Of a DNA stretch of 64,000 nt, positions 20,407-60,568 are shown piece after piece. Source of the DNA: Alphaproteobacteria bacterium. Lineage in GTDB: Bacteria > Pseudomonadota > Alphaproteobacteria > UBA7887. Each line of letters opens with the position of its first letter. Positions within the stretch are counted from its first letter, which is position 1. A program made the position numbers and the translations under genes. The notes below the pieces were generated by a model that saw nothing but the letters and a program-made list of their open reading frames with translations, had not been told where the DNA came from and searched no databases. The stretch is from contig CBDCGL010000011.1 in assembly GCA_965216755.1 (NCBI GenBank), positions 3,626,963 through 3,690,962 on the forward strand, written 5' to 3'.

Positions 20407-20925
20407 GTGACGATGCGAGCGATGCGGGTGGCCGTGTTATTGGCTGTATGGTGTGCGACATTGATAGCAGGCGCGCGCGGCGTGCGCGCCGCCGACGAAC
20501 CGGATTTCCTGGTACTTGGGGTCGGCGCCTACGATGTTCTTGATGACTTCATCGCGACAGAGTTCGACGCGCAGTTTCGTTTCAATGAACGGCTTTGGTT
20601 TATTCGACCGATGGTCGGCGCGATGGCCACCACCGACAGCGCTTTTTTCGCTTATGCCGGGATATTTGCCGACATCAACCTTGGTCAGAGACTGGTCGTG
20701 ACACCAAGTTTTGGCGCCGGCATCTACCACGAAGGCGACGGCAAGGATTTGGGCGGCAATCTGCAATTCCGCTCGGCGGTAGAATTCGCCTATCGATTCG
20801 ATGATCGGGCGCGATTGGGGGTTGAACTCGGCCATTTGTCGAACGGCAGTATTTTGGATACCAATCCGGGCGAGGAATTTATCATCGTCAACTATTCACT
20901 GCCGACCGATGTGTTCACACGATAA
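20407..20925 (+). CDS. acyloxyacyl hydrolase (PagL-like lipid A deacylase family)
   Basis: Signal peptide and small beta-barrel pattern, with a C-terminal GHLSNG...NPG motif containing the His/Ser typical of PagL-like proteins. Confidence 0.65.
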   Translation: MTMRAMRVAVLLAVWCATLIAGARGVRAADEPDFLVLGVGAYDVLDDFIATEFDAQFRFNERLWFIRPMVGAMATTDSAFFAYAGIFADINLGQRLVVTPSFGAGIYHEGDGKDLGGNLQFRSAVEFAYRFDDRARLGVELGHLSNGSILDTNPGEEFIIVNYSLPTDVFTR

Positions 20926-21518
20926 CCGGCGCGCAACCGTCGATATCGCAGGAAAATGATCGTCGCGAAGATCGGCGCGCCCACCGCCGCCAAGATCAAG
21001 AACGGCTGCAACCAGCCAAGCCACGCGACTGGCGCAACGATGAACAATGTGTCGTCCGGGTCAAAACCACCACGGCCGGGAATGGCCTGCGTGCCCGGAG
21101 GTAGCATCGCGTCGATTTGGGCGGCCAGCCAAAAGGTCGCGGTGACCGCCAGCCCCGCGAGTACACCCATGGCCGGCGCCCACCAACCGAGCCCGCTGTT
21201 GACCAGGCCGGCGCCGATACCGACAAAAAGCAGTGCCGTGACGACATTGTCACAAATCAGATCATAGACGTGACCCCAGGCGGATGATTGGCTGGTCATG
21301 CGCGCCAACACGCCGTCGGCACGGTCCAAAAGCATCGATAACACATAGACGATTGCGGCCACCCAATTCCACGTCGCCGCGCCCATCGCGAACAGACCCG
21401 CCGCCGCCAGCCCCGTCACCAGGCGGGCGGTGGTCAAGTGATTCGGCGTGACGGCGGTCCCGGCCAATGGCCGCACCGCCGCCGTAACCACTCGGTGCGC
21501 CCAGGTATTATGACTCAT
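20892..21518 (-). CDS. CDP-alcohol phosphatidyltransferase family protein
   Basis: Perfect D-x2-DG-x2-AR-x8-G-x3-D-x3-D motif (DRADGVLARMTSQSSAWGHVYDLICD) in a polytopic membrane protein. Confidence 0.9.
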   Translation of the reverse strand: MSHNTWAHRVVTAAVRPLAGTAVTPNHLTTARLVTGLAAAGLFAMGAATWNWVAAIVYVLSMLLDRADGVLARMTSQSSAWGHVYDLICDNVVTALLFVGIGAGLVNSGLGWWAPAMGVLAGLAVTATFWLAAQIDAMLPPGTQAIPGRGGFDPDDTLFIVAPVAWLGWLQPFLILAAVGAPIFATIIFLRYRRLRAGYRVNTSVGSE

Positions 21519-22284
21519 CGCCGTTGCCCGCCGTCGCCGGTGATTGGGGAAGGGGCTGAAGTTGCGGCCAAACACAGCGTTCGGCCATGTCGATGTCGTC
21601 GGGAAAATCGATCTCGGTCCAGGGCAGTCCGGTAATGTCCTCGAAGCCGAAAGCCCCCGGCGGTTCCGCGATCAACAAGTCGCGCAGCGCCTCATCATAG
21701 TAGTCGGTGGTTTGGCCGGCATCGATATAGCGGCGAGTGGCGTCGGCCAGGCGTCTGGCCATGTGCCCGGACAGGCGGAAAAAGCCGACCGATTCACCGT
21801 GCCAATCGTGAGCATGCTCTGGTTGTTTGCGAAAGTCGACCAATTGGCCGTTCTTCACGCAAAGTTTCGCCGGCTCGTCACCGGGTTCGATATTACGGTC
21901 AAGCAAGAAGCAGTTGGCGTGGCGCGAACCGAGCAGTCGCGCGATCATGCGCTGATCGTAAAGGACATCGCCGTCCATCAGCAACACGTCGTCGCCGGCC
22001 GACAAATGGGCGCGCAGCGCCCATTGGGTCACGATGCTGCCCGCGCGATAGTCCGGATTGTGGACCGTCTCAATCGGAATGCCGGCAACGGACTGGGCCA
22101 GTTCGTGCGTGATATCGGCGGCACGATAACCGGTTGCGACGACAATTCTATCGACTCCGCAACTCTGCAATATGCGAACATGTCTTTCCAACAGTGTGTG
22201 GCCGCCAAAGCGCAGCAGAATCTTCGGCCCGTCAACGCCGATCAACCGGTCGCCGACACCGGCGGCAAACAGACACGCGCGCAT
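21508..22284 (-). CDS. LicC-like nucleotidyltransferase (phospho/phosphono-alcohol cytidylyltransferase type)
   Basis: AAGVGDRL (GxGxRL) N-terminal motif and NTP_transferase fold pattern. The ATG at 22284 overlaps the upstream stop; the 106-codon upstream extension is Arg-rich and rejected. Confidence 0.8.
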   Translation of the reverse strand: MRACLFAAGVGDRLIGVDGPKILLRFGGHTLLERHVRILQSCGVDRIVVATGYRAADITHELAQSVAGIPIETVHNPDYRAGSIVTQWALRAHLSAGDDVLLMDGDVLYDQRMIARLLGSRHANCFLLDRNIEPGDEPAKLCVKNGQLVDFRKQPEHAHDWHGESVGFFRLSGHMARRLADATRRYIDAGQTTDYYDEALRDLLIAEPPGAFGFEDITGLPWTEIDFPDDIDMAERCVWPQLQPLPQSPATAGNGDES

Positions 22285-23270
22285 CAAGATACGCCGCGCG
22301 ACCGCGCGCGCCACCAGCGGTGCCCCTCGATCGCCTGCCAGGCAATCAGGCCGGGGACGCCGCCCAGGATTTCGCGCATCCGTCTGACGATCGCAATGGC
22401 GAGGCCGACATCGGCGCCGAGACCCAACACGCCAGCCACGATCATATAGCCGCCTTCCTGAAGGCCGAGCCCGCCGGGTACGGCGAACGCCGCGCTGCGC
22501 ACCGCTTGCACCAAGCCCTGAATGATCAAGGCTTCGACCATGCCCGCCGGGACCCCCATGAATGCCAATGCCAGATACACTTCGCCGGCGCCGAGCGCCC
22601 AACTCACCAGATGATAGACCGAAGCGACCGCCATCTCGCGGCGTCTGCCATAGGTCGCGCGTACGGCGCGGTCCAACCGGCGCGCACCGCCAACCAAGTT
22701 TGCCAGACTGTCGCCGCCCAAGCGCTCGATAAATCCGGCAAGAAACCCAAACAAGCCGCGTTGTTGAACGGCGGCGAAGCCGACAACGGCGGCAAAGAAC
22801 AATGCAGTAACCGCAAGCACAGCGCCGGTTAACTCGCGACCGCCATCATGGTGCGCAACCAAAAGGCCCAAGGCCACCAAGGTAAACAGGGCCTGCATCA
22901 GCACGATCAACGTCATATCGACGACCAAACTGGCCGCGGCCAGCGGCCCCGGCATGCCGCGCACGATCAAAAGTCGCGCCACCACCACATCGCCGCCGAT
23001 CTGTGCGACCGGCAGCAGTTGGTTTACCGACTGGCGAATCCAACGCATTTTCCACGCCACCAACAGCGACGGGCGCGCCCGGGTCGCCGCCACGCGACGC
23101 CAGCCAAAGGCGTCGGCCAATAGCGGAATGGCATCGAAGGCGACGATGATCAAGATCCCCCAGCCAACCGTGACTAAGGCTTCGGCCAAGGTATCGGCGC
23201 CACGCCACACAACCAAACCCGTAAACAGCGCCAAGCCGGCCAAACCAAACAGGACCATGAGCCGTTTCAT
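22284..23270 (-). CDS. UPF0104 / lysylphosphatidylglycerol-synthase-TM-region (HpnL-like, flippase-like) membrane protein
   Basis: 328-aa polytopic protein starting MKRLMVLFGLAGLALFTGLVVWRG..., resembling the HpnL/UPF0104 family. Overlaps both neighbours by 1-4 nt. Confidence 0.7.
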   Translation of the reverse strand: MKRLMVLFGLAGLALFTGLVVWRGADTLAEALVTVGWGILIIVAFDAIPLLADAFGWRRVAATRARPSLLVAWKMRWIRQSVNQLLPVAQIGGDVVVARLLIVRGMPGPLAAASLVVDMTLIVLMQALFTLVALGLLVAHHDGGRELTGAVLAVTALFFAAVVGFAAVQQRGLFGFLAGFIERLGGDSLANLVGGARRLDRAVRATYGRRREMAVASVYHLVSWALGAGEVYLALAFMGVPAGMVEALIIQGLVQAVRSAAFAVPGGLGLQEGGYMIVAGVLGLGADVGLAIAIVRRMREILGGVPGLIAWQAIEGHRWWRARSRGVS

Positions 23271-25900
23271 GGCTCTTGGGTCCTCGCCGTGGCGATCGTC
23301 ATCAGGGCCGGCAACAATAGGATCGTGGCCGCGAATGTTACGCCAACGCCAATGATCAGCAGCATACCCATACTTGCCGTGCCGACATGTTCGGACACGG
23401 CCAAGGCCCCGAAACCAGCCATGGTGGTCGCCGCGCTCAACAAGGCGGCGCGCGCCGTCGATGTCGCCAGGACGGGTTGTGCCGGCGCGGCGCGCTGGCG
23501 CCGCATCAGGTGAATGGCGCTGTCGACACCAATGCCCAGCAGCAGGGGCAGTACGATGACATTGGCGAAGTTGAAGGTCATCCCGGCAAGCGTCATGATC
23601 GCGGCCGTCAACAGCGCGCCCAGCAACAGCGGTGCCATCACCAAGGCGACGTCGATCGGACGCCGGGTTACGATCAGCAACAATGCGGCGATCGAAACCA
23701 ATGCGGCCAGCAGAGCCTGAATAAAAGCCGTTATCACGGTATCGCCTGCTTCCAACACCAAAACCGGTTGATCGGTGATATCTTCAGCAACCGTTCGCAC
23801 GGCATCGACAAAGCGCACCAAGGCGTCATTGTTGGCGACGATGTCCTCGGCCGGGAAGACCTGAACCCGTTGGCCGCCATCGCGCGCCTGGAATTGCGCC
23901 CGCAGGTCCTCTGGCAGCGCCGATTCGGTAAACGGCGCGGCGGTAAGCGATGCGTCCAACAGGGCGATCTGATAGGGCAATGCACCGAGCCAGGCGTCGC
24001 GAATAGCCGCCAGTGAGATCGACCTGTCGTCACCGGCGCGCAGGGCGCGATCCAATGCGGTGCGCAGGTCGGATACGCCGGCGGGCGCGTCAGGGCGCGC
24101 TGTGGCAACTTGGTCAAGTGCGCGCAGCAGGGCCTTCAAGGCGAGCTGTTCTTCATCCGGTGTGCTCGCGGTGCCGGGCGCCAAAGCAAACGGATCTGGT
24201 TCAGACACAAACGCAATGTCTTGGATGATTTCGTATTTCGTATCTTGATCTGCGGGCACGAAGTCGTCCAATGTGATGGCTTCGTCAACTTCGGGCAGCT
24301 GTTCGAAGGCGGTCTTGAGAGACGCCGCCTCGGCGCGGTCGGCGGCGACAACGGACGCGGTCCACGGCTTGGTCTGGGTGTCGTCCAGCAAAGTGCGCAG
24401 CGCGGTGACCGATTCACGTGCCGGATTTTGTAGGTTGAGCGGGTTCGGGTCGAAGCCGACCTGTGGCGCCACCGCCAAGCCGACCAGTGCCAGCACGGCG
24501 GCACCAATCGCGATCGGGCGCGCGTTGCGGTGCGGCCAGTGCGCGAATCGGTTTGCGCGTTGTGACCGCGGGCGCACTGAGCCGGGTGGCAACACCAGCG
24601 TCAACAGCGCCGGCAAAACCGTCAGGTTGGCGAAGAGACTGACGAACATGCCCGTGCCGGCGATAACGCCCAACTCCGACACACCGTCATAGTCGGTCAG
24701 CAAAAAGGCATAAAACCCGACCGCGGTCGACACGGCGCACAAGGTCAGGGCACCGCCGACGGCGCGTCCGGCTTTGGCAACGGCCGCGGTTGGATCGAAG
24801 CCGGCGGCGACCATCTCGCGGAAACGCAATCCATAGTGGATGCTGGCATCGATCCCAAGACTGACGAACAGAACCGCAAACGCGATCGAGATCAGGTTCA
24901 AATGTCCGACCAGGACCGCGGCAAACCATGCCGTCCACACCAGGCCGATGGCCAACGTCACCAATGCGGCGATCACCAAGCGGATAGAGCGTAAGCCAAC
25001 TAACAAAATCACCGCGACCAAGAACAACGCCACCAGTCCGGCGTGCTGCGCGCCCAATTGGGCGGATTCAAGCTCGTCATGGCCAAGCGCAACCGTGCCT
25101 GTCAATGACACCGTGACTCCGTTGGTCGGCGTTAGGGCCGCCGCGGCCGCGATATCGCGAATCGACTGTAGAACCGCCGCGCCCGGCATCAGCTGCGCGT
25201 AGTCGAGTGCGGCCGGCTGGACAACGATCACGGCGCGTAGGTCGGCCGCGGTCGGCGCGGTCCCGTGCATGATCTCAACCCAAGACAACTGCGCCGGGAC
25301 GCCGTCCAACAGGTTCTCGATCACACGCCCCATGCGTGTGAACAGCAACGCCAAATCTTCCAGCGGAGCCGCTTTGGTCAAGGCATCGTCGATGCCCAAC
25401 CGCAAGACCGCGGAAAGACCGCGCAGGCTCATGTCCTGGCGCAGGCGCTGCAACAGCGGCTGTGCCTCGCCCAAATCGTCGAGCAGGTCGAGAAGTTCCG
25501 CCTCGCTGAGATAGAACAAACCATTGTTGGCAAAAAACGCGCCGGCGCCCGGGGCGTAGACATAGGGAAAATGTTCCGGCTGGGCGTTAAGCGCGGTGGT
25601 GAGTGTGTCGCGCGCGGCGCGGACGCGATCGGGCGTGTCTGCTTCCAACAGAACGGTGACCGTGTCGTTCAGGCGCGGGAACTGCGCCTTGTAGGCTTTG
25701 TAAGTTCTCAGAAACGGTGTTTCGTCGGAGATCAAGTCCAAGGTGTCGGTATCGATTGTCATGGTCGCGACCGTATAGGGAACGGTCGCGGCGGCGCTGA
25801 CAATGGCCAAGATCACGACCCACACTGCGTATCGCTGAACAGTACCGAGCCACGTCGCCAAGACACGATCGAGCGGGGCTGTCGGTTGGCGATCAGACAA
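23267..25900 (-). CDS. HpnN-like RND/MMPL family lipid exporter
   Basis: 877 aa with two 6-TM bundles and two periplasmic loops. The N-terminal ...TIDTDTLDLISDETPFLRTYKAYKAQFP... matches the hopanoid-transporter HpnN-type pattern. Confidence 0.8.
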   Translation of the reverse strand: MSDRQPTAPLDRVLATWLGTVQRYAVWVVILAIVSAAATVPYTVATMTIDTDTLDLISDETPFLRTYKAYKAQFPRLNDTVTVLLEADTPDRVRAARDTLTTALNAQPEHFPYVYAPGAGAFFANNGLFYLSEAELLDLLDDLGEAQPLLQRLRQDMSLRGLSAVLRLGIDDALTKAAPLEDLALLFTRMGRVIENLLDGVPAQLSWVEIMHGTAPTAADLRAVIVVQPAALDYAQLMPGAAVLQSIRDIAAAAALTPTNGVTVSLTGTVALGHDELESAQLGAQHAGLVALFLVAVILLVGLRSIRLVIAALVTLAIGLVWTAWFAAVLVGHLNLISIAFAVLFVSLGIDASIHYGLRFREMVAAGFDPTAAVAKAGRAVGGALTLCAVSTAVGFYAFLLTDYDGVSELGVIAGTGMFVSLFANLTVLPALLTLVLPPGSVRPRSQRANRFAHWPHRNARPIAIGAAVLALVGLAVAPQVGFDPNPLNLQNPARESVTALRTLLDDTQTKPWTASVVAADRAEAASLKTAFEQLPEVDEAITLDDFVPADQDTKYEIIQDIAFVSEPDPFALAPGTASTPDEEQLALKALLRALDQVATARPDAPAGVSDLRTALDRALRAGDDRSISLAAIRDAWLGALPYQIALLDASLTAAPFTESALPEDLRAQFQARDGGQRVQVFPAEDIVANNDALVRFVDAVRTVAEDITDQPVLVLEAGDTVITAFIQALLAALVSIAALLLIVTRRPIDVALVMAPLLLGALLTAAIMTLAGMTFNFANVIVLPLLLGIGVDSAIHLMRRQRAAPAQPVLATSTARAALLSAATTMAGFGALAVSEHVGTASMGMLLIIGVGVTFAATILLLPALMTIATARTQEP

Positions 25901-25915
25901 GGGACGCGTGAGACC

Positions 25916-27097
25916 TTAGACGGTGGCCAAATGGCGGCGCAATCGTTGCGCGACCGCTGCTGGCGTGACCGTTGGGCGCGGCAGACCAGCCGGGACGCCG
26001 GGCCGGGTGGGCAGGTGCACAAAGTGCGGCCCGGGCCCCTGTTCGCCCAATCTATTCGCCAATACATGCGGCGTCGTGACACGTTGGGTGGTGGCATAGC
26101 CGCACGCGGCTGCGACCGCGCAAAAATCGACGGTGTGCGAAACGGTCGCTTGACCGCCGGTCGATTCATGCATGCCGTTGTCGAATAGAATATGCACCAG
26201 ATTGTTGGGGCGCGCCGCGCCGATCGTGGCCAGTGCACCAAGGCGCATCAAGGCGGCACCATCGCCATCCAAGGCAATCACGCGCACGTCTGGCCGCGCC
26301 AGCGCGAGCCCCAGCGCAAGGCTGGATACGCAGCCCATCGAACCGACCATGTAGAGCTGGTTTGGCCGGTCTTCCAACCCATAAAGGGCGCGGCCGGTAA
26401 ACCCCGTCGTGGCGATGATCACGTCGCGCGCGCCGCTCGTCGCCTGCACCGCCGCCAGCAGTTCGTGGCGCGTCGCGTCGGCGGGCGTCGCGACCGTCGG
26501 TATAGCGGTGCGCGGCGCCGGTCGGTTGGTCTCGTTCTGGGCTAGGGGATAGGGCGCGACACTCCCCTTCGACATCAAAAGGGCATACGGGCGACCGGTC
26601 TTGCGGCGCTGCGCGTCGGCGCGGTCAAAAACGCCGGCGACCGCTTCGGATGTGCGCGGAAACGGCTCCCACGGCACCTGCAACAGTTCCAATTGGCGAC
26701 CGGTTATGGGGCCCATCAGCCCATGTTGCGGTTCATCCCCGGCGCCGCCCGGCTGGCCCCGCCAAGTGACGATCAGCAGCAACGGGATGTTGAAGATGTG
26801 GGTCAACGACGACAATGGGCTGACCGCGTTGCCTAGCCCGGAGTTTTGCATCATCACCACACTGCGCCGACCACCGAGCTCGGCACCCGCCGCAATGGCG
26901 ACCGCATCGCCTTCATTCGTCGCACCGACATAGTCCAATCCGTCGGCCCCAATCACGTAGTTGATGAACGGGGTCAGATAGGAACAAGGCACGCCTGTGA
27001 ACAGATCGTAGCCGCGCGCTTTGGCGGCGCCTATAAACGCCTCGGCGTCGATCACAATGTCACACGAAATTGCCGGCGACCAACAGGTCGTCGACAT
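25916..27097 (-). CDS. ppd: phosphonopyruvate decarboxylase
   Basis: [10 protein letters not shown]-terminus; ThDP motif [31 protein letters not shown]. Start uncertain: ATG 27097/27100 (overlaps pepM) or GTG 27055 just after the pepM stop. Confidence 0.9.
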
Positions 27098-28721
27098 CAT
27101 CGATGTCGAGCCAATGCCCGGTTGTGTAGACGACCCGCACCTTCTGGCCCGCGCCAACCAAGCGATTGAACAACGCATCGATGCCGGCGTTTTCGAACGC
27201 CACGCGATCGTCGTCGCGCCAGCCCGTGAGGGTTTCAAAGGCCACCTGCGCGCCGGCGGCCGTGAAGCGCGCCACCCCCATCCACTCGCCGTGGATCTTG
27301 CCGGATAGTGCCGGTCCCATCTCGGCCAGCCAGACCGGGGCATAGTAGGCCTCGCGGCTATTGGGCAGTGAACATTTAACATAGTCGGCCGCCCGATTGG
27401 CGCCGCGATTGCGGCTGGTTTTCCAGTTGGTATCGACGGCAATGGTGATGTCGGCGTCGCTTTCCGTCAGCATGTCCAGCACATAACGACGAAACAGCAC
27501 GTCGCCATAGGATACGAACACGTCCCTGGTCGCAGGTTGCAGTGCCAGCGCCAGGGACACGATCTCTTGCGTGGTGTCGTAAGCGAGATTGTCGACATAA
27601 TCGAGGGCGGGCAGGTCGATCTTGTGCTTGGCATAGCCGCGCACCACGGTGATGTCTTTGACATCGGCTTTGCGGTAAACCTCGGCTATGTGCGCCAAGA
27701 TCGGCTTGCCGGCCACATCCAGCATTGCTTTCGGCTTGTGCTCGGTCAGGGCGCCCAATTCGCGGCCGCGCGAGGCAGCCAAAATGATCGCCGTCGCGGC
27801 GCCCTGGCTGGGTAGATAAGTTTCCTCGGCCCGCTTCAGTTCATCGGCGCCTTGCAAGCGAAACACTTCCGCCACCGGCGCGATCGCGTGTTCGACGCCA
27901 AGCAAATTTTCGTCGTCATGAATGGTCGCCGCGGTGCGCTGCATGGCGGTGATTGCCGCGCGCAGCAAATGATTGGCCCAAATCACCATCGAAACGCCGT
28001 GATCGCGGAACGCGTCGGTGGGGGTGGTGTAGTATTTGGTCGGTACCAACACCACCGGGCAGCGCCGATCCCAGGCGCGCAAGAAGCTGAACACTTCATC
28101 AGCGTTGGATCCGGCACTGTGAATCAAGATCGCGTCGGCACCAGCCGCATGATAGGCGCGCGCCCGGCGCAAGGCCTCCTCGAGCCCCCAACCGGCAATG
28201 AATGCTTCGACCCGTGCGACAATGGAAAAATCCGGATCGTGCTGGGCCGCCTTGCCGGCCCGAATCTTGCCGCAAAACTCATCGATGTCAGCCAGCGGCT
28301 GTGTGGCGCCGGCAATGAAGCTGTTGGTCTTCGGGAACTGTTTGTCCTCGATGCAGACCGCCGCCACGCCACGGCTTTCCAACTTTTGCACGAGCCGGCG
28401 CATATTGTTGAAATTGCCATATCCAGTGTCGCCGTCGAGCATGATCGGCACGGTGCACGCGTCGTTCATGAATTCGACCACTTCAAGCACCTGGGTCCAG
28501 CTGGCCTCATTGTTGTCGCGCACACCAAGCGCCGCCGCCATTGACAAGCCACTGGCCCAAACCGCGCCGAACCCGGCCTCCTCGGCGATTTTCGCGCTCA
28601 GGCCGTTATGTGCCTCGCACACAAAACTAAGTTCCGGGGTGTTCAAGGCGGCGCGGAAACGGGCAGCGCGCGACAGTTGCGCGCGTGGCGCGGTCTCGAT
28701 CGGTACGGCAGGTGCCTGCAT
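27060..28721 (-). CDS. pepM: phosphoenolpyruvate mutase fused to a C-terminal nucleotidyltransferase domain
   Basis: PepM-specific EDK-x5-NS motif ([13 protein letters not shown]) in the N-terminal ~300 aa. The C-terminal ~250 aa has [10 protein letters not shown]...KPKAML (GxG-type NTP-transferase motif). Confidence 0.9.
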
Positions 28722-43808: not shown

Positions 43809-43886
43809 CAGCTTACTAAATATGCTAAATAGAGCCGCTCCAAAACATAGGCATGCAAAATGTAGTGTATTTAGTAAACTGTCACC
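43804..43886. repeat. AT-rich palindromic element copy 1 (MITE/REP-like), ~19-bp terminal inverted repeats
   Basis: GGTGACAGCTTACTAAATA...TATTTAGTAAACTGTCACC with one mismatch between arms. The left arm contains the dehalogenase stop codon. A second copy is at 60458..60539. Confidence 0.8.
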
Positions 43887-44043
43887 AGAACTAAGCCACT
43901 GGCATGTCGACTATGATTCGCGACGGTGGTCGGGGCTCTGACGACAACCGCCTATGGGGCGATACCAGCGCTGCCCGGTCGCGCGCAGGTTGACGCAACC
44001 CGCGCCGTGCCGACCTGACAAATCTCACAGACGAAGAGACGCC

Positions 44044-46002: not shown

Positions 46003-46863
46003 CTAGCTCAGCAAGTGCGGGCGTCCGGTGGCGCGCTGGTTCTCGTAAATCGACCCTTGATGGATGGCCGGCGGAAATGGCATGCGCACCGGCACCGGCT
46101 CAAGCCGCGGTTCGACCGACGGCGCGCCCGTCAACAGCAGCGACTTAAAATAGTCCGGGTCCAAGGTCTCGTGGATCGGCCATGCATCGGCGGCCCGATA
46201 CTGATGCAGCAACAAGCGGCGCGGCCCGTGCGAGAGATTGGGCGTAGACCCATGCACAATGCGAACATGGTGGATGCTGATGGCGCCGGCCCGGCCGGTC
46301 AGCGGTACCGCTTGAGCATACAGTGGATCGGCCGCCGCATCGGTGATGGCGCCGCAAAACCGCCCATCCGCATGGTGATCGTAGATCGGCCCGCGGTGGC
46401 TGCCGGGCACGACCATGAGCGGGCCGTTTTCTAGCGTCACGTCGTCGAGCATGAACCCAACGGCGCACAAATCATCGTTGGTGTGCGGGTAAAACGCCCA
46501 ATCTTGATGCCATTCGACGGCCGCGCCACCCGCCGCCGCTTTGACGTTCAGCTTACTGTTGTCAAAACGGACACCGGGTCCAATCAACGCTTCCATGACT
46601 TCTAGGACAAGCGGATGGGTGACCATGGCGTGATAGGTCTTGTGCCATTTGTGCGGCGTCTTGATGCGCCGCACCCGCGGCTGATCGGGCTTGTGATCAT
46701 CTTCCAAGTCATAGACTTCGTTATGGGCGGTGACGTCGCCCGACTGGCGAATAAGCGCATCGGTCGTCGCGCGTAGGCGGTCGATCTCGTCGGCACCCAA
46801 CACGTCGTCCACAACCAAATATCCGTTCTCGCGATAAAATGTGACGTCGGCGTCAGCGAGCAT
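46003..46863 (-). CDS. phytanoyl-CoA dioxygenase (PhyH) family protein
   Basis: FYRENGYLVVDDVL..., WHQDWAFYPHTNDD (HxD) and a distal His ...ISIHHVRIVHGS. Start at the ATG at 46863. Confidence 0.8.
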   Translation of the reverse strand: MLADADVTFYRENGYLVVDDVLGADEIDRLRATTDALIRQSGDVTAHNEVYDLEDDHKPDQPRVRRIKTPHKWHKTYHAMVTHPLVLEVMEALIGPGVRFDNSKLNVKAAAGGAAVEWHQDWAFYPHTNDDLCAVGFMLDDVTLENGPLMVVPGSHRGPIYDHHADGRFCGAITDAAADPLYAQAVPLTGRAGAISIHHVRIVHGSTPNLSHGPRRLLLHQYRAADAWPIHETLDPDYFKSLLLTGAPSVEPRLEPVPVRMPFPPAIHQGSIYENQRATGRPHLLS

Positions 46864-47090
46864 CGGCGTTTCTCCAACCTTCGTATCCGACCCTAGGGCG
46901 CGCCCGCACGTTAGCGCTAACATTGGCCCAAGACAAGAGCTGACTGACGCACCCCGGCTGGCCATGGCTGTCTCCGGGTTTGTTCAATAAGTCAAACGTG
47001 TAGGTCGAAGATTTGGTGTCAGAAAGTTTACACGGGACCTGACCCGGTTCGTCGTGCGCATGTGGCGAGGCTGCGTCATACGCTGGTTTC

Positions 47091-47121
47091 AAAAACCGCC
47101 AAATTCAGCTCTTTTTGGCGG
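47091..47121 (-). terminator. hairpin plus T-run (read on the minus strand) inside the long intergenic region
   Basis: Minus strand: CCGCCAAA-N10-TTTGGCGG followed by TTTTT. No annotated minus-strand gene lies upstream of it. Confidence 0.35.
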
Positions 47122-47292
47122 CTGTCGGGTGGCCGGATCAGGGCCGTCGCCGGCACCGCCCGCGGCTTTTCCGGTTGATCGTTAACTTTTGCGTTTCGGC
47201 GTTGAAACAAACGTCGCGCGGCTATCGCTTAACTCTGTGAGGTATTTCTAATTTCTAAAATGAAATCAATTAAATAGTAATTTTTCGAAAAT

Positions 47293-47308
47293 TGGCACGG
47301 GTCTTGCT
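47293..47308 (+). promoter_or_regulatory. sigma-54 (-24/-12) promoter
   Basis: TGGCACG-GGTC-TTGCT exactly fits TGGCACG-N4-TTGCW. It lies about 145 nt upstream of the ATG at 47453 and directly follows the only strongly AT-rich stretch in the window (47236..47290). Confidence 0.75.
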
Positions 47309-47452
47309 GGGAAGGGGCCGCTAGGTAGTGAGGCGCACGACGCTGTTCATGACCTGGGGGGTCTTGGCGTGTGTCGACAAAGGGAACGCAACAAGCCAGA
47401 CACGCGCGATGGCCCCGCTCATGAGGACATAGGGACCTAGGAGAACAAAATA

Positions 47453-48640
47453 ATGAGGACCGGTACCTTGCTTTCCGCAGCCTCGGTCTTGGCGTTCAGC
47501 ATCGCGCTGAGCGGCACCGCCGCAGGTCAGACGCTCGACGACAACCAGCTCAATGTTGGCGCGTTGTTTGGGCAAGCAAATGGCAACGCAAATGATCGCA
47601 GCCGCGCAGACAACGACTTCATCGACGCCGACGTAACGCTGACCGACAACAATGCCGGGTTCGGCAACGCGTCGGGCGGCAGCACGGCCGACAATGACGG
47701 CATCGACAATAAGGGTGGCACGATCGACAACGATGGCTACGACATCGACGTCAAAGATGTCACCGTCAAGGCTTCCAACGTCGAAGACAGCAACAACAGC
47801 AACGCCCTGTATTGGTGGTACAACTCGCTCAACACCGTGAATGTCGATCACAGTATTCACGACAACATCGCGATGCTCAGCCGCACCGATCTCGAAGCCA
47901 TGGTGTCGGGCGTCAACATGTTCAACCTGAACGCCCATGGCGCGGCCACCGGCGGTGCCGGCCTCGCGTATGCTGGCGGCGAAGCCAATGCGAAAGCCAA
48001 GGGCAAGGTCAAAGCCAAAGCTGACGGCGACTCGACGGCGCGCAACAAAAACCGCACCGACGCCGACTCTGGCGGATTCGCGCTGGGCGCGGCCGGCGGC
48101 AACACGGGCGGCGACGCCACCAACACGGCCGGCAGCTCGACGGCCCATGGCGGCGGTGCACTCAACGCCACCGATGGTACGGCAGCCGGAATCTTCATCG
48201 GCTTTGCGGCGAACAAGACCGAATCCACGGACGGCAGCGGCGACGCGGCCGGCGCGTCGGGTGCGGGCGGCACGGCAGCCGGCGATGCCGGCGATGTCGG
48301 CGACACCTTGGGACTCGCGGTGGTCGATGCCGACGCCACGTCAGGTGCGGCCAAGGCCGACGCCAAGTCCGGCAATATCGGCAACATGGCAGCAGCCGGT
48401 AACACTTCCAGCGCGGACGCCAGCAACAACTCGGCAGCGACCATCGAAGGTGGCACGCAAACAACAACCCTGGATGTCAACTTCGCCACCGGCAGCATCT
48501 CCAGCATGATCAGTGATCTGCGCGGCATCAACCCGATCGTTCAGAACACTGGCTTTGCTTCCAACCAAAACGTCTCGATCAGCGTCAACGCGATGGTCGC
48601 CAGCGTCAACGGCGGCGGCACCATCGGTAGCGGCCGCTAA
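47453..48640 (+). CDS. secreted Gly/Ala/Asn/Asp/Thr-rich protein of unknown family (paralog A)
   Basis: AGGAG RBS, Sec signal peptide (…SIALSGTAAG), 395 aa, no Cys. Alignable end-to-end with the downstream gene. Confidence 0.8.
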   Translation: MRTGTLLSAASVLAFSIALSGTAAGQTLDDNQLNVGALFGQANGNANDRSRADNDFIDADVTLTDNNAGFGNASGGSTADNDGIDNKGGTIDNDGYDIDVKDVTVKASNVEDSNNSNALYWWYNSLNTVNVDHSIHDNIAMLSRTDLEAMVSGVNMFNLNAHGAATGGAGLAYAGGEANAKAKGKVKAKADGDSTARNKNRTDADSGGFALGAAGGNTGGDATNTAGSSTAHGGGALNATDGTAAGIFIGFAANKTESTDGSGDAAGASGAGGTAAGDAGDVGDTLGLAVVDADATSGAAKADAKSGNIGNMAAAGNTSSADASNNSAATIEGGTQTTTLDVNFATGSISSMISDLRGINPIVQNTGFASNQNVSISVNAMVASVNGGGTIGSGR

Positions 48641-48685: not shown

Positions 48686-49861
48686 ATGAGAAAACTCACC
48701 TTGTTGACCGCTGCGTCGGCCATGGCCCTGGGCTTGGGTCTTGCGCAGTCGGCGCAGGCCGTGGATGTGACCAACAACCAAGCCAATGTTGGTATCCTCG
48801 GCACCGCCAACAACAACGCCAACGATCGCAGCGTCACCGACAATGACGGTCTGGATCTGGATGTCAAAGCCGACAGCAACAATATCGGCTTCGGCAATGC
48901 CAGTGGCGAATCGACCGCAGACAACGACTTCGTCGACAACAAAGAAGGCACCATCGACAATGATGAGGTCGACGTCGACGTCACCGGCGTGGATATCACC
49001 CTGTCCAACAAAGAGCGCAGCGGCAACACCGCCGTCTGGGCGATGATGTGGGGCTCGGGCAACAGCGCGTCATATGACGGCAGCATCCACAACAACATCG
49101 CGCAGCTGAGCCACACCCAGCTGAGCGCTGCGGTGACCGAAATCCAGATGTTCGATATCGAAGCCGGTGGCTACGCCTTTGGTGGCCTCGGCGCCGCGGT
49201 TGCCGACGGCGAAGCCAAAGCCCGGGCCAAGGGCAAGGTCCGCGCTAAGGCCGATGGTGACTCGACGGCCAAGAACCGCAACAAAGCGGATGCTGACGCG
49301 TTTGGCGCCACGGCGGCGGCGGCTGGCCACAACGAAGGTGGCACGGTCGAAAACGAAGCCGGCAACTCCGCCGCCAATGGCGGCTTGGCCATTAACCTCA
49401 CCGATGGTGACGCGATCGCCTTGCTCGGTGCCGCGGCCAACTGGACCAAGTCCGAAGATGGCGGCAACGATGCCAAGGGCATGTCCGACAAGGGCGGCAG
49501 CGCCGAAGGTGCCGGCGGCGACGTCGGCGACACTGCCGCGGTTGCTTTGGTCGATGCCGACGCCAACTCTGGCGACGCCACCGCGACGGCGACGTCGGGT
49601 GACGTGGCCAACACGGCCGTTGGTGTCAACGAGTCGACGGCCACGGCGTCGAACGACACCGAAGCCACGCTTGGCGGCTCCAGCCAAGAAACCAAAGTGG
49701 CGTTCAACTTCACGACCGGCGGCCTCCTCGGGTCGGTCGGAAGCCTGCGCGGAATCAATCCGGTCATGCAAAATACCGGCTTCGCGCACAATCAGAACGT
49801 TGGCGTCAGCGTTAACGCGTTGGTCGGCAGCGTCAACGGCTCGGGCTCGATCCGGCCGTAG
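48686..49861 (+). CDS. secreted Gly/Ala/Asn/Asp/Thr-rich protein of unknown family (paralog B)
   Basis: AGGAGG RBS, signal peptide (…GLAQSAQA), 391 aa. Shares the NANDRS..DND, AKGKVxAKADGDSTA and LRGINPxxQNTGFAxNQNV blocks with paralog A. Confidence 0.8.
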   Translation: MRKLTLLTAASAMALGLGLAQSAQAVDVTNNQANVGILGTANNNANDRSVTDNDGLDLDVKADSNNIGFGNASGESTADNDFVDNKEGTIDNDEVDVDVTGVDITLSNKERSGNTAVWAMMWGSGNSASYDGSIHNNIAQLSHTQLSAAVTEIQMFDIEAGGYAFGGLGAAVADGEAKARAKGKVRAKADGDSTAKNRNKADADAFGATAAAAGHNEGGTVENEAGNSAANGGLAINLTDGDAIALLGAAANWTKSEDGGNDAKGMSDKGGSAEGAGGDVGDTAAVALVDADANSGDATATATSGDVANTAVGVNESTATASNDTEATLGGSSQETKVAFNFTTGGLLGSVGSLRGINPVMQNTGFAHNQNVGVSVNALVGSVNGSGSIRP

Positions 49862-49891: not shown

Positions 49892-49927
49892 GCGGTGGGA
49901 GGCCCCCCTCCCACCGCTTTTTTTTTT
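49892..49927 (+). terminator. Rho-independent terminator of the paralog pair
   Basis: GCGGTGGGAGG-CCCC-CCTCCCACCGC followed by T10. Confidence 0.9.
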
Positions 49928-49946: not shown

Positions 49947-50951
49947 CTAACGCGGTAACTCGATCGCGTAATCGGGCAGCGGCGCCGGCGCCTCGATCAA
50001 ACCTTGTTCGGCCAGGAACGCGGCGAAACGCTGGTAACGATTTTGATCCAAACTGCCCGGTCGCAACGCAAATCGCGGCAGCGTGTCGCGCCAGGCACGC
50101 CGGTTCAGCTCGTCATTGATGCTGTCACGATAGGCGACGAACAAGTCCCAAGACTCATCAGGATGATTGACCAAAAAATGGGCGGCGCGTTCCAGGGCGT
50201 CGACGAACCGGCCCAAGCGCGGCTGGTCGATCGCATTGCGTTGCGCGACGATGATCAGCTCGTCGTAAGCGGGCACGCCATGTTCCTCGACAAAGAAAGC
50301 ACGGCCTTGATGGCCCTCGATGGCCAGCTGGTTGAGTTCAAAATTGCGATAAGCACCGATGACCGCGTCAACCTGACCCGACAGTAACGCCGGGCTCAAC
50401 GCGAAATTCACGTTGATCAGTTCCACATCGGCCAGTGCCACCCCATGCTTGGCCAGCATGGTGCCCAAGAGCGCATCTTCGAAGCCGCCGACGGAGTAGC
50501 CAACCTTGCGCCCCGCCAAGTCGGCGATTTTCGTGATCGGCCCGTCGTCGAGCACCAGCAATGTGTTTAGTGGCGTCGCCACCAAGGTGGCCACGCGCAC
50601 CAAGGGCAGCCCCTCCGCGACGTGCAAATGCAATTGCGGCTGATAGCTGACGGCCAAATCCACTTGTCCGGCGGCCACCAATTTTGGCGGCAATGTCGGA
50701 TCGGCTGGTTCGCTCATGGCGACTTCAAGCCCGGCTTCGGCGAAATAACCCTTTTGCTCGGCAATGACCAAAGTGGCGTGATCGGGATTGAGAAACCAAT
50801 CCAACATCAGCGACAGCGGCTCGGCCGTGGCCTTGCTGGCGCCGCCGGCATTCAAGGCAACAAGGAAAACGAGCGTCAGCGCCCTTGCCACGACCGGTCG
50901 ACGAAGACCGCCAAGACTATGTCCAAAATTGAATTGTCGGGTTCTCGACAT
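49947..50951 (-). CDS. NMT1/THI5-like (ThiY-like) periplasmic substrate-binding protein
   Basis: Signal peptide; LMLDWFLNPDHATLVIAEQKGYFAEAGLEV...DLAVSYQP is typical of the NMT1/ThiY family. Preceded by a TPP riboswitch. Confidence 0.8.
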   Translation of the reverse strand: MSRTRQFNFGHSLGGLRRPVVARALTLVFLVALNAGGASKATAEPLSLMLDWFLNPDHATLVIAEQKGYFAEAGLEVAMSEPADPTLPPKLVAAGQVDLAVSYQPQLHLHVAEGLPLVRVATLVATPLNTLLVLDDGPITKIADLAGRKVGYSVGGFEDALLGTMLAKHGVALADVELINVNFALSPALLSGQVDAVIGAYRNFELNQLAIEGHQGRAFFVEEHGVPAYDELIIVAQRNAIDQPRLGRFVDALERAAHFLVNHPDESWDLFVAYRDSINDELNRRAWRDTLPRFALRPGSLDQNRYQRFAAFLAEQGLIEAPAPLPDYAIELPR

Positions 50952-51029
50952 TCGCGCCGCCTCCGCTGCAATGGGCGTGCGGGAAGGGGCGGTTCGGCCT
51001 CACGGCGCGCATGTGTGTGCGAACGGCAA

Positions 51030-51130
51030 TCGGTTCCGCTCCCTTCGCCGGCATGACCCGGATCAGGTTCAGAGGGTCACCGCCTGCACGGTATCTCAGC
51101 CCTTCAACAAGGCCCCCCTGGGATGACGGC
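51030..51130 (-). ncRNA. TPP (THI-box) riboswitch
   Basis: Minus strand reads GGGGGGCC..GGGCUGAGAUACC...ACCCUCUGAACCUGAUCCGGGUCAUGCCGGCGAAGGGAGC. This matches the conserved CUGAGA and ACCUGAUCnGGnUnAUnCCnGCGnAGGGA cores, about 80 nt upstream of the binding-protein ATG. Confidence 0.9.
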
Positions 51131-51478: not shown

Positions 51479-52051
51479 CTAATTGCGTTTGGATCGGGCG
51501 AGCGGCCGGATCCGACGGCCGTCCGTAGCCGACGTCGCGTCGTCTGCTTTGGGATGGAGGCACGCGCACGATTTTGCCGCGCCGTCATCGACGGCATGGC
51601 TGACATACGCATCAATGGCGTCGGTGAGGGCATCTTGGATGTGCAGGCGACGGTGTGCGGCGATCAGACGTAATTTGAAGTGACGCTGTGGGTCTAGCCG
51701 CACTGAAAGCCGCACCCGTCCGGTGCGGTCGCGCTTCAATTCCGCCTCGGCGGCAATCTCCACCGCGCGCGGCGATCGCTGTTTGGTGTTCGACCGGGTG
51801 CTGGGCACAGCGTCGGTTGCCAACCGATCCAAGTCAGGCGCGCTCAATTCGGCAACGGCAGGACGTGGCGGCGCCAGACGGAGCAATGCGTCCGAATCTT
51901 CAATGGCCGGCAATAAGGCCAAATGATCGGCGATGTCGCTGAGGTCGTCCCGATGGTCGACGTCGCGCGCGAGCGGCGCGTCGCCAAGTCGCGACGGTGC
52001 CGCCGCACCCTTGCGGGCCAAAAGGCGGCTGGTCAAGGGCGCCGACTTCAT
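51479..52051 (-). CDS. ParG-like partner protein: disordered N-terminus plus C-terminal ribbon-helix-helix-like domain
   Basis: The ATG overlaps the parA-like stop (ATGA). RVRLSVRLDPQRHFKLRLIAAHRRLHIQDALTDAIDAYV resembles an RHH/CopG fold. Confidence 0.55.
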   Translation of the reverse strand: MKSAPLTSRLLARKGAAAPSRLGDAPLARDVDHRDDLSDIADHLALLPAIEDSDALLRLAPPRPAVAELSAPDLDRLATDAVPSTRSNTKQRSPRAVEIAAEAELKRDRTGRVRLSVRLDPQRHFKLRLIAAHRRLHIQDALTDAIDAYVSHAVDDGAAKSCACLHPKADDATSATDGRRIRPLARSKRN

Positions 52052-52752
52052 ACAGCGGCCATCCGCGTCGGGCCGACAATGGCATCGCTGCCGGTGCCCG
52101 TGCGCGCCGAGGTAAACGCCGGTGGTGTCGCGGCGCGGGCGAGGCGCACCGCCAAATATTGCCACAGGTCATGGATCTCCTGCGCTGATTTGGAGCGTTC
52201 ATTGAGCTCCATCACGGTGCGACCGTCGATCATGCTGGCGGCGAAATCGGTCCTTTGGTGAATGGTTATCGGCGCCACGGTGCCATGCTGCGACAAGGCG
52301 ATTGCCGCCTCGGCCGTGATCCGGGCCCGTGGCGCGGCGCCGTTGATGACAAATGTCAGGGGTTTGCCCAGCCGTTCGACCAATTCGACCGTCGCGCCGG
52401 CGGCGCGCAAGTCATGTGGGCTCGGTCGTGTCGGAATTGCCACCAAGTTGGCCAAGCGCACGACATGTTCGATGGTTGCGGTGTTGGCTGGTGGTGTGTC
52501 GAAGATCAACAATTTGATGCCACGTGCGCGCATGGCCTGCATGTCTTCCGCCAACCGCGCGACAAATGTATGTGCGAAGACGGGCGTGTCGGCCGCGCGT
52601 TCGTTCCACCAGTCAGCCAAACTGCCTTGGGGGTCCGTATCGATCATCGCAACCGGGCCGTGGCCGGCGCGTTCGGCTTGCACGGCCATATGGCCGGCCA
52701 AGGTGGTCTTTCCGGAACCGCCTTTTTGCGATGTAAAAGCCAATACTTGCAT
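52048..52752 (-). CDS. ParA/MinD-family P-loop ATPase (small type Ib-like ParA)
   Basis: Deviant Walker A SQKGGSGKTT, IDTDPQGS, and LLIFDTPP Walker B. Confidence 0.85.
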   Translation of the reverse strand: MQVLAFTSQKGGSGKTTLAGHMAVQAERAGHGPVAMIDTDPQGSLADWWNERAADTPVFAHTFVARLAEDMQAMRARGIKLLIFDTPPANTATIEHVVRLANLVAIPTRPSPHDLRAAGATVELVERLGKPLTFVINGAAPRARITAEAAIALSQHGTVAPITIHQRTDFAASMIDGRTVMELNERSKSAQEIHDLWQYLAVRLARAATPPAFTSARTGTGSDAIVGPTRMAAV

Positions 52753-53416: not shown

Positions 53417-53603
53417 GATGTGTACTTCCCTGTTATCCCTATTGGCTGCCTGCACAGATTTTGTAGGTGAATTTATCGAAGCCTACAAGATGTGGTCTTT
53501 TGGGTCGCGCAACTTCTCACGCGCATCGCTGCTTGACGAGTGAGCCACGACCGTTCGAATATTATCCGGAAAGCTGCCGGGCGAACAACCGCGAGCGACA
53601 AAT

Positions 53604-54755
53604 ATGAGTGTAGCATTGGCTCCCAATCATGATTTGATTGGCATCAAAGGTGGATTTGGCCGACTCAGCACACCGGCCTTGGTGCTCGACCTCGACGCCA
53701 TGGAGGCGAATATCCAGGCCATGGCGGCCCATTGCGGGCGCACCGGGCAAGCGCTTCGGCCGCATGCCAAGAGCCACAAGTCGGTCGCGATTGCTCGCCG
53801 GCAGATCGAGGCCGGTGCCGTCGGGCAGTGTTGCGCGACCATCCGCGAGGCCGAAGCCATGGCCGATGCGGCGGTGCCGGGTGTGCTGATCACCTCGCCG
53901 CCTACGGGGCCCGCAAAAACTGCCCGGCTCATGGCGCTGCATGCCAAAGCGCCGGACGCGATGGTGGTTGCCGATCATCCGGATACCGTCAGGGCCTTGG
54001 CCACAGCGGTGGCCGATCAGGGTGGTGGCCGGATGCTTCGCGTTTTGGTTGATTTCGATGTCGGCCTGGCGCGTACCGGCGCGGCGGATGCGGCGTCGGC
54101 AGCGGCGCTTGCACAAGCTATCGACGCGGCGCCGCAACTCAGATTTGCCGGTGTCCAAGCCTATTACGGCCAACTGCAACATGTTGCGCGCTTCGCTGAG
54201 CGGACTGATCTGGTCATGGCCCAGGCGGCGCGTGTGCGTGAACTGGTCGACCGCCTGGCCGACCAGGGTCTGGCACCCGAATTGGTCACCGGCGGCGGAA
54301 CCGGAACCCATGACATCGATCATCGTGCTGGCGTGTTCAACGAACTGCAGGCTGGCTCGTACGTGTTTACCGATGTTGACTATAACGCCGTTGACCTGAC
54401 CGCGGACCAACCGCGTCCGTTTGCCCCGGCGCTGTTCGTGATGGCGACCGTGGTCAGTGTAAGCCATGATAGCCACGCGGTTATCGATGCCGGTTTGAAA
54501 AGCTTTGCCACCGACGGGCCGGCACCGGTGTTTGGCGATGGCGCGCCGGCCGGCGCCACGTACAAATTCATGGGTGACGAACATGGTGCCGTGGTCTATG
54601 CGGGTGGCGAAAACACGCGCCTCAAAATTGGTGACGCTGTTCGATGCGTCGTGCCCCATTGTGACCCGACTGTGAACCTGTACGACCACTATCATTGCTA
54701 TCGAGACGACACTTTGGTCGATATCTGGCCGGTCGACGGTCGCGGTAATCCCTGA
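53604..54755 (+). CDS. DSD1-family PLP enzyme (D-threonine aldolase / D-serine dehydratase-like, alanine-racemase N-terminal fold)
   Basis: TPALVLDLDAMEANI...LRPHAKSHK (PLP lysine)...YVFTD and a C-terminal HCDPTVNLY. Confidence 0.8.
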   Translation: MSVALAPNHDLIGIKGGFGRLSTPALVLDLDAMEANIQAMAAHCGRTGQALRPHAKSHKSVAIARRQIEAGAVGQCCATIREAEAMADAAVPGVLITSPPTGPAKTARLMALHAKAPDAMVVADHPDTVRALATAVADQGGGRMLRVLVDFDVGLARTGAADAASAAALAQAIDAAPQLRFAGVQAYYGQLQHVARFAERTDLVMAQAARVRELVDRLADQGLAPELVTGGGTGTHDIDHRAGVFNELQAGSYVFTDVDYNAVDLTADQPRPFAPALFVMATVVSVSHDSHAVIDAGLKSFATDGPAPVFGDGAPAGATYKFMGDEHGAVVYAGGENTRLKIGDAVRCVVPHCDPTVNLYDHYHCYRDDTLVDIWPVDGRGNP

Positions 54756-54835
54756 TCTGCTCATGTCGCGCGGCGCGCGGCCGCCAATACCGCTATAGTG
54801 CTGGCCGCACCGATTGTGGCAATGAAGAAACAGCT

Positions 54836-60432: not shown

Positions 60433-60457
60433 GGGCGATTGGGCATCTCTCTATTTT

Positions 60458-60539
60458 GGTGACAGTTTACTAAATACACCATATGTTGGCGATGCTCATA
60501 GAGAAGCACCGTATGTGGTGTATTTAGTAAACTGTCACC
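60458..60539. repeat. AT-rich palindromic element copy 2 (MITE/REP-like), perfect 23-bp terminal inverted repeats
   Basis: GGTGACAGTTTACTAAATACACC-N36-GGTGTATTTAGTAAACTGTCACC, extended to 27 bp by flanking TTTT/AAAA. Lies between convergent genes. Confidence 0.85.
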
Positions 60540-60568
60540 AAAAGTCCAAAAGTCACCAAAAAATGTGA

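Follow-up and report, generated by a model that had tools for sequence, protein, structure and literature searches.

A canonical sigma-54 promoter motif upstream of two lineage-specific genes for predicted secreted proteins

What controls the expression of two tandem genes that have no relatives outside their own genome and that lie behind an intergenic gap containing a −24/−12 promoter motif? We addressed this question in a 64-kb window (the whole stretch of DNA that was analysed), for which a preliminary description had placed a sigma-54 promoter in a regulatory gap of 590 bp. The gap covers 46864..47452 and measures 589 bp, given a start of the divergent PhyH-family gene at ATG 46863, the residue at which the alignments of its homologues begin. 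The genes bounding the gap, the tandem pair that we refer to as A and B, and the end of their transcription unit are the following.

46003..46863, minus strand: divergent gene for a PhyH-family dioxygenase, bounding the gap on the left.
47453..48640, plus strand: gene A, whose predicted product is a secreted orphan of 395 aa that starts with a signal peptide, is rich in Ala, Gly, Asn and Asp and lacks Cys.
48686..49861, plus strand: gene B, a tandem paralogue encoding 391 aa that shares 54% identity with A and has a CTAGGAG ribosome-binding site of its own.
49892..49927, plus strand: intrinsic terminator ending the A–B operon, an 11-bp GC-rich stem followed by T10.

The motif TGGCACG-GGTC-TTGCT (TGGCACGGGTCTTGCT) lies at 47293..47308 on the plus strand, exactly where the preliminary description had reported it, and matches 16/16 specified positions of TGGCACG-N4-TTGCW, the sigma-54 consensus with its fixed −24/−12 geometry (PMC3538637). 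It is intergenic and on the same strand as gene A, and the distance of about 145 nt previously given between the promoter and gene A is correct when counted from the final base of the motif to the ATG at 47453 (145 nt). On both strands of the window, this is the sole exact match to TGGCACGNNNNTTGCW, for which shuffled sequences predict 0.06 and a first-order Markov model 0.04 occurrences per window. The flanks of the extended 21-nt consensus MRNRYTGGCACGRNNNTTGCW, which we take to be that of Barrios et al. 1999 (mrNrY upstream, r after TGGCACG and W after TTGC), are all present at 47288..47308, whereas the remaining sites in the window carry at least three mismatches and are found at chance level (7 found versus 7.5 expected). 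A perfect 21-mer has an expectation of 0.0013 per window and of 0.096 per 4.85 Mb, the genome, and is therefore not expected even once in the genome by chance. In its core, its flanks, its placement and its orientation, the element has every feature by which a sigma-54 promoter is recognised. Numbering it with G 47295 as −24 and C 47307 as −12 yields the following layout.

47288..47308, plus strand: extended putative sigma-54 promoter, AAAAT-TGGCACG-G-GTC-TTGC-T, with 0 mismatches to MRNRYTGGCACGRNNNTTGCW.
47294..47295 and 47306..47307, plus strand: GG of the −24 element and GC of the −12 element, respectively, of this promoter.
47319 ± 2, plus strand: predicted transcription start, 12 nt past the C of TTGC, as expected from the fixed −24/−12 geometry.
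47320..47452, plus strand: predicted 5′ untranslated leader, about 134 nt long, in which AGGAG at 47440..47444 forms the Shine-Dalgarno sequence.

Elsewhere in the window, a second exact occurrence of the shorter pattern TGGCAC-N5-TTGC was detected at 23623..23637 on the minus strand, within an MMPL-family gene and 353 nt upstream of the start of an LPG_synthase_TM gene. We rejected it as a sigma-54 promoter: it has 3 mismatches to the extended consensus, and its expectation of 0.3 per window is compatible with chance.

Genes A and B share a GC3 of 0.79, above that of the neighbouring genes, and each is preceded by a CTAGGAG ribosome-binding site and starts with a typical Sec signal peptide. 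Comparison of the two coding sequences gives a dN/dS of about 0.40 at a dS of about 1.1, indicative of purifying selection. Base composition, Shine-Dalgarno sites, signal peptides and selection all mark A and B as genuine genes. They are separated by a 45-nt spacer that contains neither a promoter nor a terminator, and a strong terminator follows B, so that the pair forms a bicistronic operon of about 2.6 kb.

Both proteins are acidic and Cys-free, with an abundance of Ala, Gly, Asn, Asp, Ser and Thr. A conserved N-terminal part of about 135 aa, which harbours repeated DNDxxDxDV motifs, and a conserved C-terminal part of about 60 aa enclose a low-complexity middle. A word-indexed search of 5.8 billion clusters and an exhaustive phmmer search of 1.84 billion representative proteins delimited the family to three members encoded on one and the same 4.85-Mb contig: A, B and P0003, a further paralogue of 422 aa. 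No relatives of A or B turned up in scans of genome contigs and metagenome contigs, and neither protein had a match in Pfam, in NCBIfam or in a profile search of the PDB. A profile built from the two conserved terminal parts also found nothing, a weak negative because it missed the three paralogues themselves, and AlphaFold2 run on the three-sequence alignment returned an unusable model (pLDDT of 28). What is unusual about this locus is its cargo, secreted low-complexity proteins whose family has three members in a single genome; the promoter itself is canonical.

As homologues of A and B are confined to this genome, there is no orthologous promoter on which conservation of the motif could be assessed. 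The flanking genes offer no substitute. Among 80 loci retrieved by means of the PhyH neighbour, the best identity was 63%, none held an A/B relative and none was syntenic; relatives of a ThiY-like neighbour were at most 73% identical, and the two contigs examined (encoding P0022 and P0005, 72–73% identical) were non-syntenic. With neither close relatives nor synteny, these neighbours do not permit phylogenetic footprinting of the promoter. The named matches of the neighbouring genes belong to Alphaproteobacteria, Kiloniellales and Fodinicurvata.

To the right of the A–B pair, a gene on the minus strand (49947..50951) encodes an NMT1/THI5-like binding protein whose homologues are named hydroxymethylpyrimidine transport substrate-binding protein, and a TPP riboswitch (RF00059, 68.8 bits, above the gathering score) lies upstream of it at 51023..51129 on the same strand. 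The riboswitch and the names of the homologues identify this neighbour as a gene for the uptake of a thiamine precursor, with no relation to A and B. Otherwise, the window codes for ordinary chromosomal functions, including aconitase, HtpG, CarD, a sigma-70-family factor, a PEP-mutase cluster, transporters and dehydrogenases. The PEP-mutase cluster (20892..28721, minus strand) comprises a PEP mutase–nucleotidyltransferase fusion, a TPP-dependent decarboxylase-like enzyme, an MMPL transporter, an LPG_synthase_TM protein, a nucleotidyltransferase and a CDP-alcohol phosphatidyltransferase, and looks like a locus for phosphonate (phosphonolipid or phosphonoglycan) biosynthesis. A gene for a ParA/VirC1-like ATPase (52048..52752, minus strand) sits between ORFs without a Pfam match (51479..52165 and 53562..54764) in an otherwise metabolic region. 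We also noted a conserved element of about 31–35 nt, ATGTGGTGTATTTAGTAAACTGTCACCAAAA, present three times in two intergenic regions (43856..43890, 60454..60488 and 60513..60543). The two copies near 60.5 kb are inverted relative to each other, with 28 nt between them and 97% complementarity, and all copies rank among the most AT-rich spots of the window; the element may be an operator or another regulatory repeat.

A promoter of this type calls for an activator, and the preliminary description had stated that no enhancer-binding protein (bEBP) is encoded in the 64-kb window and that the regulator must act in trans. Our searches agree with the first statement. Six-frame regular expressions for GAFTGA, for the bEBP Walker A motif and for ESELFGH had no match in the window, a phmmer search with E. 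coli NtrC against all six-frame stop-to-stop segments of at least 60 aa returned nothing at E ≤ 10, and no Sigma54_activat domain came up when about 54 ORFs, which together cover most of the window, were scanned against Pfam. The RpoN box likewise had no six-frame match, and no rpoN gene lies within the 64 kb. A distant bEBP gene is usual for many sigma-54 regulons, such as those of NtrC, FlbD and NifA, and its absence from the window is therefore unremarkable and no anomaly. The second statement follows from the lack of a local bEBP gene combined with established sigma-54 biology, which together imply that an activator encoded elsewhere acts in trans.

Immediately upstream of the −24 element, the gap contains a tract of extreme base composition.

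47243..47292, unstranded: AT-rich tract with 14% G+C, spanning about −27 to −76; candidate IHF site, intrinsic bend or UP-like element.
47264..47276, plus strand: best match to the IHF consensus, AATCAATTAAATA, agreeing at 12/13 positions of WATCARNNNNTTR, centred near −49 and located inside the 14%-G+C tract.

The tract abuts the −24 element, is rich in TA steps and lies 380 nt from the PhyH start. As the 50-mer with the lowest G+C content of the window (14%, versus 30% for the next lowest and a window mean of 61.8%), it bears out the earlier claim that the AT-rich segment is the only one of its kind; the coordinates attached to that claim need correction, as the quoted 47-nt string occupies 47245..47291 and not 47236..47290. 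Matches to the IHF consensus WATCARNNNNTTR (PMC2709558) that reach 12/13 positions occur 34 times in the window versus 19 expected, and we accordingly treat AATCAATTAAATA as a lead, not as evidence. Characterised sigma-54 promoters have IHF sites or intrinsic bends in the region occupied here by the tract, with the enhancer ~100–140 bp from the −12 element, and those that depend on IHF are rich in AAAA, AATT and TTTT runs (PMC2709558); sigma-54 promoters requiring IHF have been documented in Alphaproteobacteria (PMC3096577). By analogy with these promoters, a role of the tract in IHF binding or bending is plausible, and it most likely supplies the bend for an activator loop, be it through IHF, intrinsic curvature or a UP-like contact with the alpha subunit of RNA polymerase.

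The composition of the tract would also suit a platform for an AT-preferring nucleoid-associated silencer of the MucR/Ros type, or a promoter or UP element serving the divergent PhyH gene, a reading that is compatible with a real sigma-54 promoter and that we consider unlikely. This is the sole strongly AT-rich DNA, with many TA steps, in a window of 62% G+C, and it is located within a divergent intergenic region that must also house the PhyH promoter; the IHF motif match being only at chance level leaves further room for such a role. Lineage-specific genes such as those downstream are the kind often covered by silencers of this type, but A and B are not AT-rich or foreign-looking, their GC3 exceeding that of their neighbours. 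As for the PhyH gene, the minus strand of the tract carries no sigma-70 consensus promoter, and the position of the tract, directly against the −24 element and remote from the PhyH start, is one suited to the promoter of A.

A scan with the E. coli consensus, which captures alphaproteobacterial sigma-70 promoters poorly, detected no sigma-70-type promoter on either strand of the gap. This negative is therefore a weak one, and it leaves some room for the notion that the sigma-54 motif is a chance or vestigial, unused sequence and that A and B are driven by a sigma-70 or ECF promoter that escaped recognition in the gap. We regard this as very improbable in view of the position and orientation of the motif, which are the right ones, and of the rarity of a perfect 21-nt consensus (0.0013 per window and less than one per genome). 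A candidate EcfG promoter (GGAAC-N16/17-CGTT) was rejected as well, because the GGAAC at 47383 has no CGTT at the right spacing.

The predicted leader contains a GC-rich hairpin at about 47358..47416 that lacks a U-run behind it. The leader as a whole matches no Rfam family, its fold z-score of −1.7 is not significant, and no terminator is found ahead of gene A. Closed complexes of sigma-54 holoenzyme are stable without an activator, and together with the leader hairpin this could suggest that the holoenzyme chiefly forms such a complex here, acting as a roadblock, as an insulator or at a promoter for a short leader RNA instead of driving A–B, an idea that we can hardly credit given that the hairpin without a U-run provides no terminator before gene A, that the fold is not significant and unmatched in Rfam, and that no other promoter was found for A. 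Within the leader, ATGAGGAC occurs at 47421..47432, where it opens a 3-codon mini-ORF (ATG AGG ACA TAG) devoid of a Shine-Dalgarno sequence, and again at 47453..47460, where it forms the start of gene A; the duplication is probably coincidental.

Three patterns in the gap upstream of the tract could be considered as activator-binding sites.

47193..47208, unstranded: palindrome GTTTC-N6-GAAAC, centred near −119, the position expected of an enhancer; a chance-level match.
47096..47121, unstranded: perfect 8-bp inverted repeat CCGCCAAA-N10-TTTGGCGG, centred near −211; candidate upstream activator site (UAS) or minus-strand terminator-like hairpin.
47017..47032, unstranded: TGT-N10-ACA, which follows the UAS pattern of the NifA type and precedes the predicted start by about 295 nt; 0.077 expected in the gap.

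No UAS rises above chance in the gap: the GTTTC/GAAAC dyad, the 8-bp inverted repeat (for which we estimate about 0.2 occurrences by chance in the gap) and the TGT-N10-ACA pattern, which lies beyond the usual enhancer distance, are all at or near the chance level and have no comparators. Neither an NtrC-type dyad nor an ftr-like element was recognised in the gap. On the minus strand, the stem at 47096..47121 (8 bp, with 10 nt in the loop) runs into TTTTT (47095..47091), 228 nt upstream of the PhyH start, and thereby resembles a terminator, yet there is no upstream minus-strand gene to terminate. This hairpin might shield PhyH from antisense transcription, function as a leader element or serve as an activator site.

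Taken together, these data make it probable that the motif at 47293..47308 is a functional sigma-54 (RpoN)-dependent promoter of the A–B operon, kept silent until an unlinked AAA+ activator loops in with the assistance of the AT tract. As read from the sequence, the sigma-54 holoenzyme would contact the −24 GG (47294..47295) and the −12 GC (47306..47307) to form a closed complex. To leave its silent state, the complex would need an AAA+ enhancer-binding activator whose gene lies elsewhere in the genome. This activator would attach upstream of the promoter, probably in the region of about 47090..47230, and remodel the complex through a DNA loop, for which the 50-bp tract from −27 to −76 would provide the bend. 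Transcription would then start near 47319, proceed through the 134-nt leader, A and B, and stop at 49892..49927, and its products would be two Sec-exported, acidic, lineage-specific proteins rich in Ala, Gly, Asn and Asp that are made only upon the activator signal.

The promoter adds nothing new to sigma-54 biology and is an unusually clean instance of the canonical layout. What it offers in practice is a way to approach the genes that it precedes: it points to an operon under tight control, not a constitutive one, and to the prediction that the two orphan secreted proteins are off by default and are turned on by a specific AAA+ activator, which makes an orphan family experimentally tractable. 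We see an about even chance that this promoter acts as the switch, thrown by the signal of a sigma-54 activator, of a secreted protein family that is truly new, with three paralogues in a single alphaproteobacterium that is isolated phylogenetically and no member elsewhere; Ca2+ binding or a place in a matrix or surface layer are possible roles of these proteins. If so, the family would be made only in response to a relayed signal, for instance within a developmental, cyst, biofilm or starvation programme.

Several known sigma-54 systems resemble this locus in part. At the Pseudomonas putida Pu promoter (XylR, IHF, UP-like element), AT-rich DNA upstream of the −24 element serves both IHF bending and alpha-CTD contact. 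Comparable DNA occupies the same place here, but Pu resides on a catabolic plasmid and its activator and sites are known, whereas nothing upstream can be assigned at the A–B promoter. The NtrC-dependent, IHF-independent E. coli promoter glnAp2 illustrates the use of an intrinsic bend, with a distant activator gene, looping over ~100–140 bp and short A/T runs that aid bending (PMC2709558); the tract described here is far longer and more extreme, and the gap has no recognised NtrC-type dyad. The NifA-dependent nif/fix promoters of rhizobia and Klebsiella have the same TGGCACG-N4-TTGCW core (PMC3538637), and the likeness extends to an AT-rich region, here a candidate IHF site, just upstream of the −24 element and to the single TGT-N10-ACA at 47017..47032. 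This pattern, however, lies ~295 nt upstream instead of the usual 100–140 bp from the −12 element (PMC2709558), has a chance probability of about 0.08, and stands in a window without nif/fix genes. The class III/IV flagellar promoters of Caulobacter crescentus use FlbD-bound ftr enhancers, whereas no ftr-like element was identified here, and the genes of this locus are not flagellar: their products have signal peptides and no Flagellin or other Pfam match. In their architecture, these Caulobacter promoters are nonetheless similar to the A–B promoter: they combine an alphaproteobacterial −24/−12 core with an IHF or bending element between core and enhancer (PMC3096577), a role for which the AT-rich tract is a candidate at this locus, and the gene for their activator lies apart from most of the promoters that it serves (PMC3096577), just as the gene for the predicted activator of A and B lies outside the window.
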